Shown here: positions 21,629-41,715 of the stretch, piece by piece
How positions within the stretch are numbered: position 1 is the first letter of the stretch
Layout: each line of letters starts with the position of its first letter
Sequence record: NC_054927.1
Length of the DNA stretch: 64,000 bases
Source: Escherichia phage vB_EcoM_Ozark
Strand: one strand, 5' to 3'
Program-made: the position numbers and the translations under genes
The notes under the pieces: model-generated
The model's database searches: none
Told to the model about the DNA's origin: nothing
What the model saw: the letters and a program-made list of their open reading frames with translations, nothing else

Positions 21629-21663
21629 TCTATAGTATCAACAACTACAGACCATGTAAACCG
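21629..21663 (-). promoter_or_regulatory. Early promoter
   Basis: Minus strand GTTTAC-N15-TGA-TACTATA. Confidence 0.45.
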
Positions 21664-31569: not shown

Positions 31570-32043
31570 TTATTTGAACGATTTAACGTACTGAATAGAA
31601 CCTTTACTATTCACGAAAGCGATTTTACCATTTTTATTATACATGGTAGCAGTACGCTGATAGCCATAAGTTTGCTTACCAGATTGATAACCAACTAATG
31701 CAAAATTATCTTCACCCATTTTATTCTGTTTAGCGCGAATGCGTTCATGACCATGTGCCATAAGAACCTTAGCATCACCAGTTGCAATGGATCGACGAGT
31801 TTTTTCATCTTCAACTGTATTAACAAAGTCGTCAAATGAATCAAATTTAGCATGAGATTTATTATACAGTTTTCCATCTACTGCATAATTATATCCCTGT
31901 ACATCCATCTCAACTTCTGTACCATCATCCAATACAGCAGTGATTTTCTGTCCTTTTTTAAATTTCAAAAGATCAGTAAAAGATTCAGCAATAATTTGAG
32001 AATTAATAGCTGCTTCAGTAATAAATTCTTGATATGTTTTCAT
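31570..32043 (-). CDS. Internal-protein-like packaged protein with capsid-targeting sequence
   Basis: 157-aa ORF beginning MKTYQEFITEA, i.e. the T4 internal-protein capsid-targeting sequence with a protease-type L/I-x-E cleavage motif. Confidence 0.6.
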   Translation of the reverse strand: MKTYQEFITEAAINSQIIAESFTDLLKFKKGQKITAVLDDGTEVEMDVQGYNYAVDGKLYNKSHAKFDSFDDFVNTVEDEKTRRSIATGDAKVLMAHGHERIRAKQNKMGEDNFALVGYQSGKQTYGYQRTATMYNKNGKIAFVNSKGSIQYVKSFK

Positions 32044-32059
32044 GTGTATCCTTTAATTT

Positions 32060-32377
32060 TTATTCTTTAGGGAAGTTTTTAGAATATGCATCATAAAGCT
32101 TATTTCCAATACGGCGGAAAACTCTAGCCGCAAAACGATTTTCTGGGTTTTTAATCATGATTTGCATCATATAAGTACCCGCGTCAGAAAGAGCTTCTTC
32201 ATAGTACCCGTTAATTTCTTTAAGAGTCCTACGTTTACCACCAGGACCATCAACAGTGATTTTCCATTTACCTGTAGAAGTGCGACTTGGCGGCTCAACT
32301 TGTTCAATCCAGATATAACCGCCTTCTACACGTTGTCCTTGGGCAGATTCTGCAATAAATTCTTTAAACGTTTTCAT
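32060..32377 (-). CDS. Internal-protein-like packaged protein with capsid-targeting sequence
   Basis: 105-aa ORF beginning MKTFKEFIAES; early-promoter element immediately upstream. Confidence 0.6.
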   Translation of the reverse strand: MKTFKEFIAESAQGQRVEGGYIWIEQVEPPSRTSTGKWKITVDGPGGKRRTLKEINGYYEEALSDAGTYMMQIMIKNPENRFAARVFRRIGNKLYDAYSKNFPKE

Positions 32378-32411
32378 ATGGTTCCTTTAAATATTTTAAT
32401 TAGTAACTATG

Positions 32412-32446
32412 AATATACTATCACAGTTCTAGGAGAAAGTAAACAA
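32412..32446 (-). promoter_or_regulatory. Early promoter upstream of an internal-protein gene
   Basis: Minus strand GTTTAC-N15-TGA-TAGTAT. Confidence 0.45.
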
Positions 32447-32448
32447 CT

Positions 32449-33417
<969 letters not shown>

Positions 33418-35996: not shown

Positions 35997-36125
35997 TTTT
36001 GTGAAAAAATTTTTAAAAAGTTTTAGGGAATTCTAGGGTCAGGAGGGGCAATTAAAAGGTAGGATAATATATTATAAAGGGTATAAACTAAATGATGCCT
36101 AGAGAGGCCCGGAAAGGCCTAGATA

Positions 36126-36155
36126 CCAAAAAGCCCCAACCTTTCGGTCGGGGCT
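36126..36155 (-). terminator. Terminator hairpin downstream of the 36163-36636 gene
   Basis: GCCCCGACCGAAAGGTTGGGGC hairpin with G-U pair followed by a short T-run; near-identical to the 36685 copy. Confidence 0.5.
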
Positions 36156-36162
36156 AAGAATG

Positions 36163-36636
36163 TTATTTGATTTGTTTAGCAGACCAAATGCGGTCTTTAA
36201 TAATTTTTTGGATGTCTTCAACATACTCAAGAGAGTGAGCATGTGGGTTATCTTTAAAACTATAAGCACGAGCTAACTTTTGACCTTCAGTTTTGATTAC
36301 TAAAAGCTCTTTAAGGATAGCTTCATATCTGGAGATAATTCCTTTAACAATATTTTTTTCTTGTGTAGCTTTAGGATCTGCTTTAGGAGCAGGTTTACCC
36401 GAAGCCTTTGCAAAAGCAGCGCCAGTAGCAACTAAACTTTTCCAGGCCATACTAACTGCATTCCCTGTAAATCCTTCGGCTTTCATATCACGAGCAAATT
36501 GGAATCGTGATTCATCGGAAGCATCTTTATAGGAATATTTACCCGCGGCAATGGCTGCTTTTGCGACAGCTTGAATTTCGGTGCTAGACGCTTCATTTAA
36601 CACCGCTTCATTTAAAAATTGAGTATATGATTTCAT
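36163..36636 (-). CDS. Putative packaged protein with capsid-targeting-like N-terminus
   Basis: 157-aa ORF beginning MKSYTQFLNEA (compare MKTYQEFIAEA); Ala/Lys-rich; flanked on both sides by near-identical terminator hairpins. Confidence 0.45.
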   Translation of the reverse strand: MKSYTQFLNEAVLNEASSTEIQAVAKAAIAAGKYSYKDASDESRFQFARDMKAEGFTGNAVSMAWKSLVATGAAFAKASGKPAPKADPKATQEKNIVKGIISRYEAILKELLVIKTEGQKLARAYSFKDNPHAHSLEYVEDIQKIIKDRIWSAKQIK

Positions 36637-36684
36637 CTTATTTCCTGTTTTAATTCGTGAATTTAATATACTAATATTTATACT

Positions 36685-36712
36685 AAAAAAGCCCCAACCT
36701 TTTGGCTGGGGC
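36685..36712 (-). terminator. Terminator hairpin at the distal end of the tRNA/stable-RNA operon
   Basis: GCCCCAGCCAAAAGGTTGGGGC hairpin followed by TTTTTT on the minus strand. Confidence 0.55.
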
Positions 36713-36764
36713 TAAGCCTTGCGGCAACCTTGTCGGGGTTCCACCTGCTAAGGCAAGTGTTTGT

Positions 36765-36856
36765 ACGAAACGCCGGGATTCGAACCCGGTTATTAAGTAG
36801 TTGACGCTACTCAATATTTTTAAAAGGCCATATCTCAACCATATCCGAACGTTCCG
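36765..36856 (-). ncRNA. tRNA-like stable RNA (acceptor and T-arm present, no canonical anticodon arm found)
   Basis: T-arm CCGGG-TTCGAAT-CCCGG and a 7-bp acceptor pairing found by hand; ~92 nt; anticodon stem-loop could not be folded canonically; position corresponds to where T4 carries small stable RNAs downstream of tRNA-Arg. Confidence 0.3.
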
Positions 36857-37029
36857 TCAAAAACGCTACTCGGCTTACGGCAAAGATATTTCCTCGAATC
36901 GATAATTCGGTGCGCCGTTTCTGCTGTGATATAAGGGGGCATTAACAAAACATAAAGATTTATTAATGCCAGTCCTTAAACAGGGAACATCAGTCCGACG
37001 ACTTGCCGGTAGCGACCCGGCTTCTTGTC

Positions 37030-37105
37030 TGGTCGAGGCAGTAGGGATCGAACCTACGACCCAGGACTTAGAAGGTCCTTGCTCTTCCTTCTGAGCTATG
37101 CCCCG
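37030..37105 (-). tRNA. tRNA-Arg (anticodon UCU)
   Basis: Hand-folded cloverleaf: acceptor CGGGGCA/TGCCTCG, D-stem GCTC, anticodon loop CTTCTAA, T-loop TTCGATC, CCA encoded. Confidence 0.8.
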
Positions 37106-37109
37106 TAAT

Positions 37110-37185
37110 TGGGGTGACCGATGGGAGTCGAACCCATGACTACGAGAATCACAATCTCGAGTTCTACCAACTGAACTACGGCCAC
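37110..37185 (-). tRNA. tRNA-His (anticodon GUG)
   Basis: Hand-folded: acceptor 7 bp, anticodon stem CGAGA/TCTCG with loop TTGTGAT, T-loop TTCGACT, discriminator C, CCA encoded. Confidence 0.7.
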
Positions 37186-37299
37186 ATTAATACCTACTCC
37201 AATAATCAAGATGTCTTCACACGAAATTAAGAGAAGAGTGATCAGTTCAACCCCTATAATCGCGTCAAGTAGATATTAATGTGACAGTTGTCACAAATT

Positions 37300-37374
37300 T
37301 GGCGGACGTGATAGGATTCGAACCTATAACCAATCGCTTAACAGGCGATCGCTCTGCCATTGAGCTACACATCC
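37300..37374 (-). tRNA. tRNA-Asn (anticodon GUU)
   Basis: Hand-folded: anticodon stem ATCGC/GCGAT, loop CTGTTAA, T-loop TTCGAAT, CCA encoded. Confidence 0.75.
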
Positions 37375-37378
37375 AAAT

Positions 37379-37465
37379 TGGTGGGGAGTGGTGGAGTCGA
37401 ACCACCCGAGTCGCAATGACAATGGATTTACAGTCCACACCGCTACCTCTACGGGATAACTCCCC
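37379..37465 (-). tRNA. tRNA-Tyr (anticodon GUA), long variable arm
   Basis: Hand-folded: exact 7-bp acceptor GGGGAGT/ACTCCCC, anticodon loop CTGTAAA, ~15-nt variable arm, T-loop TTCGACT, CCA encoded. Confidence 0.7.
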
Positions 37466-37478
37466 TTAATTCTTAATT

Positions 37479-37553
37479 TGGTGGCCCTGGGTGGAATTGA
37501 ACCACCATCTGGCGATTATGAGTCGCTTGCTTGAACCTTCCAGCTACAGGGCC
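37479..37553 (-). tRNA. tRNA with anticodon CAU (elongator Met or Ile with modified C34)
   Basis: Hand-folded: exact acceptor GGCCCTG/CAGGGCC, anticodon loop CTCATAA, T-loop TTCAATT, CCA encoded. Confidence 0.7.
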
Positions 37554-37554
37554 T

Positions 37555-37630
37555 TGGTGCTGATTGACGGAATCGAACCGCCGACCTTCTCATTACAAGT
37601 GAGTTGCTCTACCTACTGAGCTAAATCAGC
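37555..37630 (-). tRNA. tRNA-Thr (anticodon UGU)
   Basis: Hand-folded: exact acceptor GCTGATT/AATCAGC, anticodon loop CTTGTAA, T-loop TTCGATT, CCA encoded. Confidence 0.75.
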
Positions 37631-37635
37631 AAAAC

Positions 37636-37725
37636 TGGCGGAGGCGATAGGATTTGAACCTATGAGTCGCCGGAGCGACTGCCGGTTTTCAAGACCGGTG
37701 CATTAAACCACTCTGCCACGCCTCC
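37636..37725 (-). tRNA. tRNA-Ser (anticodon UGA), long variable arm
   Basis: Hand-folded: exact acceptor GGAGGCG/CGCCTCC, anticodon stem CCGGT/ACCGG with loop CTTGAAA, variable-arm hairpin GTCGC/GCGAC, CCA encoded. Confidence 0.8.
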
Positions 37726-37727
37726 AG

Positions 37728-37801
37728 TCTCCATACAAGGATTTGAACCTTGGACCTCCTGATCCCAAATCAGGCGCTCTACCAAACTGAGCTACACGGA
37801 G
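37728..37801 (-). tRNA. tRNA-Pro (anticodon UGG)
   Basis: Hand-folded: anticodon stem CCTGA/TCAGG, loop TTTGGGA, T-loop TTCAAAT; CCA not encoded. Confidence 0.75.
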
Positions 37802-37811
37802 TAAATTAAAT

Positions 37812-37885
<74 letters not shown>

Positions 37886-37890
37886 AAATT

Positions 37891-37977
37891 TGGTGCGAGA
37901 AGTGGGACTCGAACCCACAAGGAAATCATTCCGCAGCATTTTAAGTGCTGTGCCTTTACCAATTTGACCATTCTCGC
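37891..37977 (-). tRNA. tRNA-Leu (anticodon UAA), long variable arm
   Basis: Hand-folded: exact acceptor GCGAGAA/TTCTCGC, anticodon stem CAGCA/TGCTG with loop CTTAAAA, T-loop TTCGAGT, CCA encoded. Confidence 0.8.
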
Positions 37978-37983
37978 GTTATA

Positions 37984-38592
37984 TTATTTATTACGTGAAA
38001 AAGACTGTTCTATCAATTCTGGACACTTTCGTTCTATCCATTTTCTAGCTTTTTGTGGGCTTATACCTATTATTTTAGCAGCTTTACTAACCCATCCAAA
38101 TTTAGAATAATCGATTTTAACTAATTCTTCGTAAATTTCATCAGTTAAAATCTTTTCATTAATATTTACCAGTAAATGATATAATTTGTTATCATTAGCA
38201 ATTTTAATGAATCTTTTATAGTTTCCGCCTTTACTTAAACCTAATGAAGTAATTGCAGATGATATAGTAGCCGAATTTAATAATGCGTTTAAAATTTCTT
38301 CATCACTAACATTATAACGCTTTTTATTATTTTTAATATTTTTACCAGCAAAAGTATCAGTTTGCGAATGACAGTTTGGACATAATAATCTTAAATTTGA
38401 TTTAAGATGATTTTTGTTATTTCCATCAATATGGTCTAATTGCAGAACAATATGCTTATTTTGCCATTTTGAAATTTTACAAATTGCACACTCATATGGA
38501 AAAATATTTTCTTTTATTATTTTGTCTTTCAGCTTTCCTGTACTAAAATTTGGATGTTTTCCTTCAAAAATTTCAGCTAATTTAGTATCCAT
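37984..38592 (-). CDS. HNH-family homing endonuclease abutting the tRNA cluster
   Basis: HNH/zinc motif LQLDHIDGNNKNHLKSNLRLLCPNCH plus CAIC; ORF track begins at TTG (38616), first ATG at 38592 gives 202 aa; stop lies 6 nt from the tRNA-Leu 5' end. Confidence 0.65.
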   Translation of the reverse strand: MDTKLAEIFEGKHPNFSTGKLKDKIIKENIFPYECAICKISKWQNKHIVLQLDHIDGNNKNHLKSNLRLLCPNCHSQTDTFAGKNIKNNKKRYNVSDEEILNALLNSATISSAITSLGLSKGGNYKRFIKIANDNKLYHLLVNINEKILTDEIYEELVKIDYSKFGWVSKAAKIIGISPQKARKWIERKCPELIEQSFSRNK

Positions 38593-38702
38593 AATATGAT
38601 TCCCAATTATTAACAAAGGCTCTCAAGCAAGAACCCTTGATGATAGAGGGTATTAATCAGTGCGATATGAGTTAATAATAACAAATAATTCTTAAAGCAT
38701 AT

Positions 38703-38990
38703 TTACCATTTATGATAATACATATTTACGATGCATTCAAGACCCAAAGGATTCTTGAAAATATCATATTCAAGAGGACCTTTTTCCGTTTCAATAAAGA
38801 AATCAAAATTTACTGTATTAAATTTACGGTCTTCCTTCACTAATTTAACCTGAGAAGATGAACGGTCAATGTAAACCTTTTCAACTTCAAAACATGTTAA
38901 AATGCCATAATCATCAATCAAGGCTTTAGCTGCTTCTTGATCATATTTATATCCATTTTCAACGGATGATACTTTCGCATAAAGAATCAT
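38703..38990 (-). CDS. Hypothetical protein
   Basis: 95-aa ORF. Confidence 0.4.
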   Translation of the reverse strand: MILYAKVSSVENGYKYDQEAAKALIDDYGILTCFEVEKVYIDRSSSQVKLVKEDRKFNTVNFDFFIETEKGPLEYDIFKNPLGLECIVNMYYHKW

Positions 38991-38992
38991 TA

Positions 38993-39415
38993 TCAGCCTT
39001 CATCAACAATAGTATGAGTATGGGCATTTACGATTTGCCACCAATCAAAGCGATTAGAACCATACATCGGTTTGTTTTCATTTTCTTTGATAATATCACG
39101 GAGTTCATCTTCGGTAGCGGCTTTCGCGATTAAATCAGCATATCCACCACGAGGATAATAATTATCACCTGCAAAAAGTAAAAAATTTGGTGTAATATTA
39201 TTGAACTCTTCAAGAGTAATAACTGTTCCTGATGGTAATTGAACAATCTCTACATAGTTATATCCTAATTTTTGAGCAGCATCTACTGCTTCAAGCAGAG
39301 TATCATGAGCCCGTCCTATTTGGCAATTTGGCTTTTTAGATGGATTAGCCTGATAATCCGCGTACACTTTATACATTCTATTCACCTTTAGAAATTTTAT
39401 CCATAACGATAGCAA
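38993..39415 (-). CDS. Hypothetical protein
   Basis: 140-aa ORF; true start may be the internal Met (MYKVYADYQ...). Confidence 0.4.
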   Translation of the reverse strand: MLSLWIKFLKVNRMYKVYADYQANPSKKPNCQIGRAHDTLLEAVDAAQKLGYNYVEIVQLPSGTVITLEEFNNITPNFLLFAGDNYYPRGGYADLIAKAATEDELRDIIKENENKPMYGSNRFDWWQIVNAHTHTIVDEG

Positions 39416-39563
39416 TTAAACCAATTACAAATGCTACTACAAGTGAAAACACATTTTCTGCTGTAGTTAATAATCCGCATATAAATCCAACAAACATTGA
39501 AAAACTAAAAGCGGAAGCAGAAATTGCAATAGCAACATTTCGAATTAATTCACAGCGTTTCAT
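39378..39563 (-). CDS. Small membrane protein
   Basis: 61-aa ORF, two hydrophobic helices; directly downstream of a promoter/stem-loop cassette. Confidence 0.3.
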   Translation of the reverse strand: MKRCELIRNVAIAISASAFSFSMFVGFICGLLTTAENVFSLVVAFVIGLIAIVMDKISKGE

Positions 39564-39580
39564 TTTATTCTCCTCAGTAG

Positions 39581-39623
39581 TTGATAGGGTAATAGTATCA
39601 CTACCCTATCTAAAAGTAAACTT
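39581..39623 (-). promoter_or_regulatory. Early promoter / stem-loop cassette
   Basis: -10 element TGATACTAT embedded in the loop of a gataggg/ccctatc inverted repeat; GTTTAC -35 at 39616-39621. Confidence 0.45.
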
Positions 39624-39855
39624 ATTTTTTACGAAAAATTGATTTATTTTCTGCTGCCCATTTTTCAATAACTGCAGCAGGACCAGTAACAACAATTTTA
39701 TCACCGTAATCTTCTGCAGCGAGTTGACCGAAATTATCTAATGCATCACGAAGAACTCCATGAGGCATTTCGCCCATTTTATCCTTCTTGCCAATGTAAA
39801 TAAACTCAACTTTTACATCAACAGCTTCAGCAATAAATTCTTGATATGTTTTCAT
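39622..39855 (-). CDS. Internal-protein-like packaged protein with capsid-targeting sequence
   Basis: ORF track begins at GTG (39873); the ATG at 39855 gives a 77-aa protein starting MKTYQEFIAEA, the canonical internal-protein capsid-targeting sequence; early promoter upstream. Confidence 0.55.
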   Translation of the reverse strand: MKTYQEFIAEAVDVKVEFIYIGKKDKMGEMPHGVLRDALDNFGQLAAEDYGDKIVVTGPAAVIEKWAAENKSIFRKK

Positions 39856-39888
39856 TTTATTCTCCAATTTCACATTTGTTTTGATAGG

Positions 39889-39923
39889 GTAATAGTATCA
39901 CTACTAAAACCCCGTGTAAACAA
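39889..39923 (-). promoter_or_regulatory. Early promoter upstream of the MKTYQEFIAEA internal-protein gene
   Basis: Minus strand GTTTAC-N15-TGA-TACTAT; shares extended flank (ttgatagggtaatagtatcactac) with the 39581 copy. Confidence 0.5.
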
Positions 39924-39940
39924 CTTTGTGAAATTGTTTA

Positions 39941-40231
39941 TTACAAAAGATTTTTAGCAATAATCTTGAGATGTGCTGCAGAAATGTGTTTAGCTTTAAA
40001 CAACGCAGTTTCTTCGGCAGGAGAGATAACGATTGTAGCACCATCCTTTTTAGCAGACCACCCATCACCTAGGTAAACAGTACCTTTGATTTCTTCGCCA
40101 TCAACCAGACTAATCATTGGTTTACCTTCTCGTCCTTTATTTGCTTTAATAACTTCAGAAGTAAGAGTAGCTTCGGTAATGGTAGAAACCGGGGTAGTTG
40201 TAGTAGAAGTAAATTCTTTAAATGTTTTCAT
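39941..40231 (-). CDS. Putative packaged protein with capsid-targeting-like N-terminus
   Basis: 96-aa ORF starting MKTFKEF followed by a Thr-rich segment and ITE-A protease-type site; promoter/stem-loop cassette upstream. Confidence 0.45.
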   Translation of the reverse strand: MKTFKEFTSTTTTPVSTITEATLTSEVIKANKGREGKPMISLVDGEEIKGTVYLGDGWSAKKDGATIVISPAEETALFKAKHISAAHLKIIAKNLL

Positions 40232-40251
40232 TTTTATTTTCCTAATTAATT

Positions 40252-40294
40252 TTGATGAGGTAATAGTATCACTACCTCATCAGTATGTAAACAA
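40252..40294 (-). promoter_or_regulatory. Early promoter / stem-loop cassette
   Basis: -10 element within the gatgagg/cctcatc inverted repeat; GTTTAC -35 at 40287-40292. Confidence 0.45.
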
Positions 40295-40304
40295 CTTTGT
40301 GAAA

Positions 40305-41001
<697 letters not shown>

Positions 41002-41002
<1 letters not shown>

Positions 41003-41715
41003 TATAGTACCTTTAGTGTATTTTTTAATTTTAGAAAAAGTTCTTCAAGAGAACCATCGTTTGTAATTACTAAATCGCCATCACGAATTGGCAATCCAGC
41101 TTCTGTAATATGTGTATCATTGGATTTTTGACCAGGACGAACTACATGAATTACTGTAGCACCCATCGCCCTAGCCGCATCCATTTCATGATCTTGACGA
41201 GTATCAGGAACGATATAATAATCATAACCTGAGTTAAATTTATCAAGATAATCTAAAGCAAATAATTTTACCCAATACATGCGGTCGAAGTTATTAACAA
41301 TCAAATCCGTACCTAGGGCTTGCATCAGACGACGGACTGACCATTGATCTTCAATATTATTTATAACGTCAGCAATCTTGTTAAATGCTACGAAATTAAC
41401 TGCGTCATCAAAAACAAACACGCCTTTAATTGGGCTTTTACTATTAAGATAGCAAAATGCTTGTTCCATAATCGTAATTACTTCTAATTTAGTCAGATTT
41501 AAATTAGTCTCGCGATCATAGTCAATTCCTTCAAACTCTTTACGAGTTAAACAAGGATAGTCAGTGTTTGCTGCAAATACGCCCCATGCATAAGCCAATG
41601 CATCTTTAATAGGACCAGCAAGTTGATATTTAACTGCAGAATAATTATTCATAATAAAATCTGCAGTAGTATCTTTTCCACTACGCTTTACACCGCTTAA
41701 AAAGATTAGTTTCAT
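41002..41715 (-). CDS. 1: Deoxynucleoside monophosphate kinase gp1
   Basis: ORF track begins at TTG (41754); the ATG at 41715 with GGAG ribosome-binding site gives a 237-aa protein MKLIFLSGVKRSGKDT (P-loop). Confidence 0.85.

Follow-up and report, generated by a model that had tools for sequence, protein, structure and literature searches.

The ipI locus of this phage most probably consists of two independent modules, i.e., the classical ipI gene and an accessory gene for an internal protein of the "Ip6" type, whose products would both be packaged by means of an N-terminal tag and act against host defences; we assign this reading a probability of about 85%. Each module would comprise a T4-type early promoter with its -10 element enclosed in a hairpin, followed by a short leader and by a small ORF with the tag at its start. 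In the window (i.e., the whole 64-kb stretch of DNA analyzed), the two ORFs are present where an earlier note on this DNA had placed them, at 39941-40231 (96 aa) and 39622-39855 (77 aa), both on the minus strand. The locus is already known; our analyses confirm the observation made in the earlier note and support its interpretation in part, and no new principle emerges from them.

Over positions 38600-40400, the window shares 99.1% identity with Escherichia phage ECML-134, in which the counterparts of both the 96-aa and the 77-aa ORF are annotated as "internal virion protein", and 692 phage records match this region. The source of the window is a Tequatrovirus, and the region is the ipI hypervariable locus between 57B/acb1 and trna.4. 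The minus strand carries all genes here, with transcription running from high to low coordinates through 57B/Acb1, the 96-aa ORF, the 77-aa ORF and homologues of T4 trna.4, trna.3 and trna.2; the T4 gene order is identical except that the 77-aa ORF is absent. The upstream boundary of the variable slot is formed, in agreement with T4 gene order, by 57B/Acb1 (40305-40760, minus strand; Pfam PF23474 Acb1, 2.6e-60), a member of the anti-CBASS phosphodiesterase family, and the downstream boundary by the trna.4 homologue (39378-39563, minus strand), which encodes a hydrophobic, untagged protein of 61 aa.

Judged by its sequence, the 96-aa ORF is the classical T4 IPI. Its residues 21-96 align with the complete Pfam profile PF11634 IPI_T4 (positions 1-76 of 76; 180.1 bits against a cut-off of 25; E = 7.5e-54) and match residues 1-76 of PDB 2JUB_A, the solved structure of IPI* (E = 1.2e-44). 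T4 ipI, which occupies the same position between 57B and trna.4 behind the same promoter cassette, is 99% identical and encodes an identical 76-residue mature sequence; it differs in that its propeptide is one Thr shorter (95 vs. 96 aa), which at the DNA level corresponds to one Thr codon, and in two synonymous substitutions. The 20-residue propeptide of the ORF (MKTFKEFTSTTTTPVSTITE, followed by A) ends in ITE, and its sole [LIV]xE site ends at residue 20, as the L/I-x-E site of the prohead protease gp21 requires; the mature IPI* has 76 aa, 8.0 kDa and a pI of 9.0. While the earlier note had counted this ORF as an addition to the classical set, the Pfam, T4 and PDB matches identify it as IPI and thus as one of the three classical internal proteins rather than an extra one. 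By its sequence identity to T4 IPI*, it would be expected to inhibit GmrSD-type restriction of glucosyl-hmC DNA (PMC3012670, PMC12373910).

The 77-aa ORF, which is translated from an ATG at 39855, represents an accessory internal-protein gene of the "Ip6" type (PHROG 8111 "internal virion protein", full-length match, 3.6e-51). It was found in 244 phage records, including T6, as compared to the 692 records matching the locus, and its family carries the annotations "ip6", "internal (core) protein" or "internal virion protein" in several public records. The suggestion that this ORF is an additional internal protein thus holds in that the protein is tagged and of the internal-protein type, although it had already been annotated as such. 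The putative internal head proteins named "Ip6" (VR7 E5FII6, fFiEco06 ip6 and T6 EcT6_00137, all PHROG 8111) are 74-100% identical to the 77-aa protein over the full length, share its length, its tag and its slot directly upstream of trna.4, and show no difference of note. Members of this narrow family occur in T4-like phages only. Neither Pfam nor NCBIfam contains a model that matches the ORF, and an exhaustive profile search with the mature 67 residues retrieved only two real relatives; a match to P0013, a repeat protein aligned in 5 stretches, was judged spurious from its sequence. In a distant T4-like phage, an untagged homologue (P0012-type) occurs as an ordinary early gene, and the 77-aa domain can thus work without packaging. 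Searches of the literature on "ip6" and on virion proteomics of this family found nothing relevant.

An AlphaFold model of the 77-aa protein (pLDDT 81.7) predicts a beta-alpha-beta-beta-alpha-beta domain preceded by a tag that is disordered or helical. The best structural match in BFVD was the "Ip6" of vB_EcoM_VR7 (TM 0.97), while a PDB search returned only generic ferredoxin-like matches, with IPI* not among the matches listed. As modelled, the fold is of the generic ferredoxin-like sandwich type, lacks an informative relative and does not resemble IPI*. The predicted mature product (67 aa, 7.4 kDa) is near neutral, with a pI of 6.8 and a net charge of zero (11 K+R and 11 D+E), whereas the predicted mature forms of the other four tagged ORFs in the window are basic (pI 9.0-9.6).

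In T4, the first 10 residues of IPIII are sufficient for uptake into the head; within the tag, residues 4 and 7 govern targeting and residues 8 and 10 processing, and gp21 cuts after L/I-x-E (PMC9026906). The 10-residue tag MKTYQEFIAE of the 77-aa ORF is identical to that of T4 IPII and IPIII, as are its first 11 residues overall; the ORF has both the targeting positions (4 and 7) and the processing positions (8 and 10), and the gp21 motif (I8-A9-E10, with cleavage before A11) is kept in 10 of 10 aligned family members. Its gene is located at a variable IP locus, one of two, between ipI and trna.4 and downstream of 57B. A start of the form MK[TS][YF]x[EQ]F is found in exactly five of the 233 ATG ORFs with at least 40 aa in the window (0.001 expected), the same five that the earlier note had listed, and the five proteins are unrelated to each other beyond the tag. 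Compared to the T4 capsid-targeting tag, IPI here has the longer form of 19-20 residues, while the remaining tagged ORFs have variants that keep residues 4, 7, 8 and 10, a more diverged one being MKSYTQFLNE of the ORF at 36163, with a second L-x-E five residues further on.

One could argue that the shared N-terminus is an initiation or ribosome-binding context carried along with the cassette, and that the 77-aa product stays in the cytoplasm like any other early protein. The promoter directly upstream of the 77-aa gene is of the early type only, the nearest minus-strand late promoter upstream (TATAAATA, 41358-41365) lies inside gene 1, and neither ipI nor the 77-aa gene has a late promoter of its own; furthermore, the untagged homologue is an ordinary early gene, and the 77-aa gene shares the start context GGAGAATAAAATGAAA with the untagged trna.4 homologue. 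However, that same start context is found in trna.4 without the tag, and the ribosome-binding regions differ among the five tagged genes of the window. Among 45 distinct tag sequences from 31 related loci (codons 2-10), variation was concentrated in third codon positions (1.06 bits, as compared to 0.60 and 0.47 bits for the first and second positions, respectively), while K2, T/S3, Y/F4, E6, F7, I/L8 and E10 were retained; the 15 nt upstream of the tags were far more variable (1.48 bits). The third-position variation, the retained residues, the variable upstream sequence and the untagged trna.4 together indicate that the constraint acts on the peptide. As the tag is also identical to the 10 residues that were shown experimentally to suffice for packaging (PMC9026906), an initiation context as the source of the N-terminal similarity, which the earlier note had itself considered, finds no support in the codon analysis and appears highly improbable. 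Another explanation accepts packaging of the 77-aa protein but holds that it serves the capsid and not anti-defence, e.g., in a role of the kind proposed for IPIII (assembly of the core, or condensation of DNA and balance of charge). In IPIII mutants, head assembly is slower and polyheads form, and internal proteins use lysines to contact the phosphates of DNA (PMC9026906, PMC3012670). A capsid role is difficult to reconcile with the zero net charge of the mature 77-aa protein, with the presence of its gene in only 244 of the 692 locus-matching records, with the interchangeable and unrelated nature of the slot occupants and with the existence of an untagged version, and all three T4 internal proteins have anti-GmrSD roles (PMC12373910). 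We thus consider a purely structural function very unlikely, albeit somewhat less so than an initiation context.

The promoters of the locus belong to a family of 41-nt direct repeats with three members (39581-39621, 39881-39921 and 40252-40292; spacings of 300 and 371 nt). A 17-nt exact core, GTAGTGATACTATTACC, is confined to these three copies within the 64 kb (0.10 expected), and a variable-gap search for GTTTAC-N-GATACTAT gave 4 matches in the window (0.01 expected). A hairpin encloses the -10 element in each of the three repeats (-16.4, -20.7 and -17.4 kcal/mol; z = -3.0, -4.1 and -3.2, respectively). Cassette 3 (40252-40292, minus strand) represents the T4-type early promoter of ipI, with a -35 element TTTACA at 40291-40286, a TG-extended -10 element TACTAT at 40268-40263 and an overlapping 13-bp hairpin at 40282-40253; its sequence is identical to that upstream of ipI in T4. 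Cassette 2 (39881-39935, minus strand) represents the early promoter of the 77-aa gene (-35 TTTACA at 39920-39915 and -10 TACTAT at 39897-39892); its hairpin, at 39913-39886, is interrupted, can be extended to 39931-39870 and has a pairing register different from that of the other two. Cassette 1 (39581-39621, minus strand) represents the early promoter of the trna.4 homologue, with a 12-bp hairpin at 39610-39583, and its GTTTAC (39621-39616) directly adjoins the TAA stop codon of the 77-aa gene. The cassettes are mosaic, as a 21-nt upstream block (AATTTCACAAAGTTGTTTACA, 40286-40306 at cassette 3) is common to 2 and 3 and a 24-nt downstream block to 1 and 2. Two of the three were promoter-like in a generic sigma-70 scan; the third contains GTTTAC but scores lower as a sigma-70 promoter. 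The early promoters in inverted repeats that the earlier note had described are thus present in all three elements, with a separate cassette before each of the two ORFs, but their order relative to the genes needs correction: 39581-39621 lies downstream of the 77-aa gene and is not its cassette, the genes served being ipI (40252-40292), the 77-aa gene (39881-39921) and the trna.4 homologue (39581-39621).

Enclosure of the -10 element in a hairpin is frequent at this locus; hairpins with z < -2 were present in 37 of 49 distinct promoter elements at the ipI locus across 31 related loci (76%), as compared to 4 of 16 GTTTAC-type elements elsewhere in the window (25%), one of these four being the promoter of the other IP locus. 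Across relatives, the ipI-locus hairpins are built from many different stem sequences, and two compensatory pair changes distinguish the stem of cassette 1 from that of cassette 3. Retention of the hairpin with varied stems, together with the compensatory changes, points to selection on pairing. Intrinsic termination was considered as a role for the hairpins and rejected, as the three stems have no U-tracts; a terminator scan, which is a pattern test only, found 0 terminator-like sites in 38500-40900, and no Rfam family matches the cassettes. A transcript that starts approx. 7 nt past each -10 would begin inside the 3' arm and would lack the hairpin, which would thus be present only in read-through RNA or in single-stranded DNA.

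The 77-aa gene is contained in a 300-bp module (39605-39904) that is present here and absent from T4, and that consists of the 3' half of a promoter, the 77-aa gene and the 5' half of a promoter. Exact direct repeats of 24 nt within the cassettes (39581-39604 and 39881-39904) bound the module, whose register is arbitrary within the repeat and whose removal in silico restores the T4 junction with 470 of 485 columns identical to T4. Ordinary homologous recombination across 24 nt is all that this indel junction needs, without any hairpin-specific mechanism. In T6, three cassettes are arranged in the same way and slot 2 encodes the same 77-aa protein, but slot 1 holds a different tagged protein of 85 aa, which begins with MKTFKEFATKTTITE. 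In a survey of 36 loci anchored on 57B, trna.4 was located in 31; among these 31 loci, the interval from 57B to trna.4 contained 0, 1, 2, 3 and 4 tagged ORFs in 1, 12, 12, 5 and 1 loci, respectively, and the tagged ORFs at the surveyed loci belong to at least 14 unrelated families. Two tagged ORFs in this interval are thus normal, and the combination present in the window, i.e., a T4-type IPI with a T6-type second slot, is common.

These data also bear on whether the cassettes are more than ordinary T4 early promoters with a functionless inverted repeat, in which case gain and loss of modules would represent plain recombination without PeSL-like shuffling. The 24-nt exact repeat at the indel junction suffices for recombination in T4, neither a U-tract nor a terminator was found, and the promoter's own transcript would have no hairpin; in addition, some relatives have IP genes without a GTTTAC element, and at the second IP locus the ORF at 31570 lies only 16 nt after that at 32060. 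On the other hand, the excess of -10 hairpins at the locus (76% vs. 25%), the many stem sequences that keep pairing and the two compensatory changes between cassettes 1 and 3 speak against a functionless repeat. We regard this simpler account as rather unlikely, but as a considerably stronger competitor than either alternative for the 77-aa protein discussed above.

The window contains three further ORFs with the tag, all on the minus strand. Two of them constitute the second classical IP locus (31570-32377), which adjoins the lysozyme gene e, where they take the place of T4 IPII and IPIII, i.e., a 105-aa ORF (32060-32377; PHROG 3966) and a 157-aa ORF (31570-32043; DUF7412/PHROG 3155). As these two ORFs, 16 nt apart, have one common promoter/hairpin at about 32444, a rule of one cassette per gene fails at the second IP locus. 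The fifth tagged ORF (36163-36636; 157 aa) lies outside both classical loci and starts with MKSYTQFLNE and AVLNE, each followed by a predicted cleavage site before A; it is flanked by terminator hairpins, has a late promoter of its own (TATAAATA, 36682-36675) and would mark a third internal-protein locus. Its product is listed only as "hypothetical protein" in every record inspected. The earlier note's count of five candidate packaged proteins is thus correct as a count of tagged ORFs, but not in its assumed composition; T4 IPII and IPIII are absent, with unrelated tagged proteins at their locus, and IPI is among the five, so that the window does not hold the three classical proteins plus two. 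Similarly, five tagged ORFs do exceed three internal proteins, although this is not unusual given that at least 10 to more than 30 variants of T-even internal proteins have been reported (PMC12373910, PMC2839356).

In T4, precursors that carry the tag enter the scaffolding core and lose the tag to gp21, and the mature proteins are then injected with the DNA; IPI* acts as an inhibitor of a GmrSD type IV enzyme, as do Ip2 and Ip3 for other GmrSD variants (PMC9026906, PMC3012670, PMC12373910). By analogy, under the two-module reading the N-terminal tag would bind each precursor to the scaffolding core of the assembling prohead, gp21 would cut after L/I-x-E (Glu20 in IPI, Glu10 in the 77-aa protein), and the mature proteins would remain in the head and enter the host with the DNA, which would allow them to act before any phage gene expression. 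IPI* would then block the GmrSD-type type IV restriction enzyme that cuts glucosyl-hmC DNA. Tag-directed packaging, gp21 cleavage, injection and nuclease inhibition have been demonstrated for IPI and are predicted, by analogy, for the 77-aa protein. Several observations weigh against this reading, namely that neither gene has its own late promoter, that the mature 77-aa protein is near neutral and that an untagged homologue exists. Expression of both genes during prohead assembly is an assumption, and since the intervening hairpins have no U-tracts, late read-through is plausible; late-time expression and any function of the hairpins are in this sense presumptive. The cassettes would act as promoters and contribute hairpins to read-through RNA, while their cores may provide the homology for gain, loss or swap of whole modules between related phages.

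As to its target, the 67-residue mature Ip6-type protein would, by analogy, most likely be a stoichiometric inhibitor of another host defence protein. Ip1, Ip2 and Ip3 each inhibit a different GmrSD (PMC12373910), and, according to a 2025 screen paper, these three are the only ones with an assigned target. It is tempting to speculate that mature "Ip6" is an injected inhibitor of a host defence other than the GmrSD variants countered by Ip1 to Ip3, its tag having been grafted by cassette recombination onto an untagged early gene of the P0012 type; we put this forward as a tentative idea that has perhaps one chance in a handful or slightly better. If true, tagging would represent a general route by which T4-like phages turn cytoplasmic counter-defence proteins into pre-delivered ones. 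Internal proteins reach the host before gene expression starts, and it depends on them whether a T4-like phage can withstand the type IV restriction of wild hosts; the set carried by each phage thus shapes its host range and its value for therapy. The practical value of the present analysis is that it points to the 77-aa family and to the other tagged proteins not found in T4, the best side lead being the tagged ORF at 36163-36636 with its own late promoter.

Both the shuffling of IP genes and the promoter/stem-loop elements at IP loci have been described by authors citing Repoila et al. 1994 (PMC2839356, PMC4122927). According to Arbiol et al. 2010 (PMC2839356), Repoila et al. described PeSL-like sequences at two highly variable T-even IP loci; more than three internal proteins and flanking promoter/stem-loop elements are likewise attributed to Repoila et al. 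in the discussions by Arbiol et al. 2010 (PMC2839356) and Comeau et al. 2014 (PMC4122927). Arbiol et al. 2010 characterized the T-even IP elements, which combine T4 early promoters with AT-rich stem-loops, as analogues of PeSLs, and more than 30 IP variants are known (PMC2839356); Comeau et al. 2014 repeated this point and reported five IP differences between phage PST and T4 (PMC4122927). Given these prior descriptions, our finding rediscovers a documented system. Like the promoter/stem-loops of IP loci and the PeSLs of RB49 and phi1, the cassettes in the window combine an early promoter with a hairpin and flank small accessory genes, and, like PeSLs, they are located at indel or replacement boundaries between close relatives (the 300-bp module as compared to T4 and the slot-1 replacement as compared to T6). 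Conversely, the PeSLs of RB49 and phi1 are sigma-70-like with GC-rich polyG/polyC stems, whereas the window cassettes are of the GTTTAC T4 early type with AT-rich stems (GATAGGGTA/TACCCTATC); likewise, the terminator character of PeSLs is not shared by these stems, which have neither a U-tract nor, by the pattern test, a terminator-like site around them. These differences parallel the distinction drawn by Arbiol et al. (PMC2839356), in which T-even IP elements are analogues of PeSLs and not homologues. Overall, the window represents one common combination within this known shuffling system.

A 157-aa ORF on the minus strand (36163-36636; flanks inspected over 36100-36720) is located between e.8 and rnaC, i.e., outside both classical internal protein (IP) loci, at a site where T4 carries no gene. 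Its N-terminus, MKSYTQFLNE|AVLNE|A (vertical bars denote predicted gp21 cleavage points), resembles the capsid-targeting sequence, or tag, of T4-type IPs, and diverged homologues retain canonical variants of this tag (MKTYNEFLNE... and MKFKEFLAE|A). The ORF represents a late unit of its own (minus strand), in which a terminator hairpin is followed by the late promoter TATAAATA (36682-36675, minus strand), the ORF itself and a second terminator hairpin. The family to which it belongs (PHROG 2280, unknown function) is present in 510 phage records, and 30 of 30 records among the matches listed label the ORF "hypothetical protein". Overall, this ORF likely encodes a packaged protein that has escaped annotation and is located at a third locus. 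In the close relative ECML-134, the copy of the same family is adjoined by a further tagged ORF (187 aa, MKTYAEFLTE|A...; L001, 6047-6610, minus strand), which is not found in the window; the content of the third locus is therefore also variable.

At the IP locus beside lysozyme e (31570-32460, minus strand), two unrelated tagged proteins, one of 105 aa (PHROG 3966, "unknown function") and one of 157 aa (DUF7412), take the place of T4 IPII and IPIII, whereas ECML-134 retains an IPIII orthologue at this locus. Both genes are encoded on the minus strand with a spacing of 16 nt, without a promoter/hairpin cassette between them, and have in common a single GTTTAC promoter with a hairpin (at about 32444; folding z-score of -4.1). 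Strong hairpins around the -10 element were also observed at other GTTTAC-type early promoters of the window (minus strand, at about 29433, 24422 and 21661), with z-scores of about -5.2 to -5.3 and folding energies of -14 to -19 kcal/mol; the element at 21661 is similar to the IP-locus cassettes of relatives (...GGTCTATAG...). IP loci are therefore not the only sites at which promoter/hairpin cassettes occur.

The mature part of the 77-aa accessory internal protein (39622-39855, minus strand) has a homologue of 63 aa, P0012, with 61% identity, which is encoded on the plus strand of a metagenomic T4-like contig (L005, 3001-3192). P0012 carries no capsid-targeting tag, and in-frame stops are located upstream of its start. 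Its gene has its own GTTTAC early promoter, its stop codon is overlapped by the next promoter, and its genomic context, near a weak MotA-like match and baseplate genes, differs from that of the 77-aa gene. This untagged homologue suggests that the early gene existed first and that the tag, as a portable element, was added to it.

57B (40305-40760, minus strand), the immediate upstream neighbour of ipI, shows a match to Acb1, a family of anti-CBASS nucleases (2.6e-60), and the IP slot thus adjoins another counter-defence gene; both RefSeq and PHROGs still label 57B as "RNA ligase". GGAG, at which the T4 endoribonuclease RegB cuts early mRNAs according to the abstract of PMC1702504, is present in the ribosome-binding regions (all minus strand) of the 77-aa gene (TTGGAGAATAAAATG; 39856-39870) and trna.4 (GAGGAGAATAAAATG; 39564-39580) but not in that of ipI (TTAGGAAAATAAAAATG; 40232-40250), which hints that early shut-off may differ between the neighbouring ipI and 77-aa genes.

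Relative to T4, the tRNA region differs over 628 bp (37978-38605), whose flanks match T4 as far as tRNA-Leu on one side (37891-37977, 100%) and starting at 38606 on the other (97%). These 628 bp encode a 210-aa ORF (37984-38616, minus strand) with a weak, sub-threshold match to HNH endonucleases, which is annotated as "homing endonuclease" in ECML-134. The tRNA-Gln of T4 is missing here, and T4 segB and tRNA-Ile, used as queries, gave no match in the window. ARAGORN identified 10 tRNAs in the scanned stretch (36600-38700); these include His, Asn, Tyr and Met, none of which is represented in the T4 cluster.
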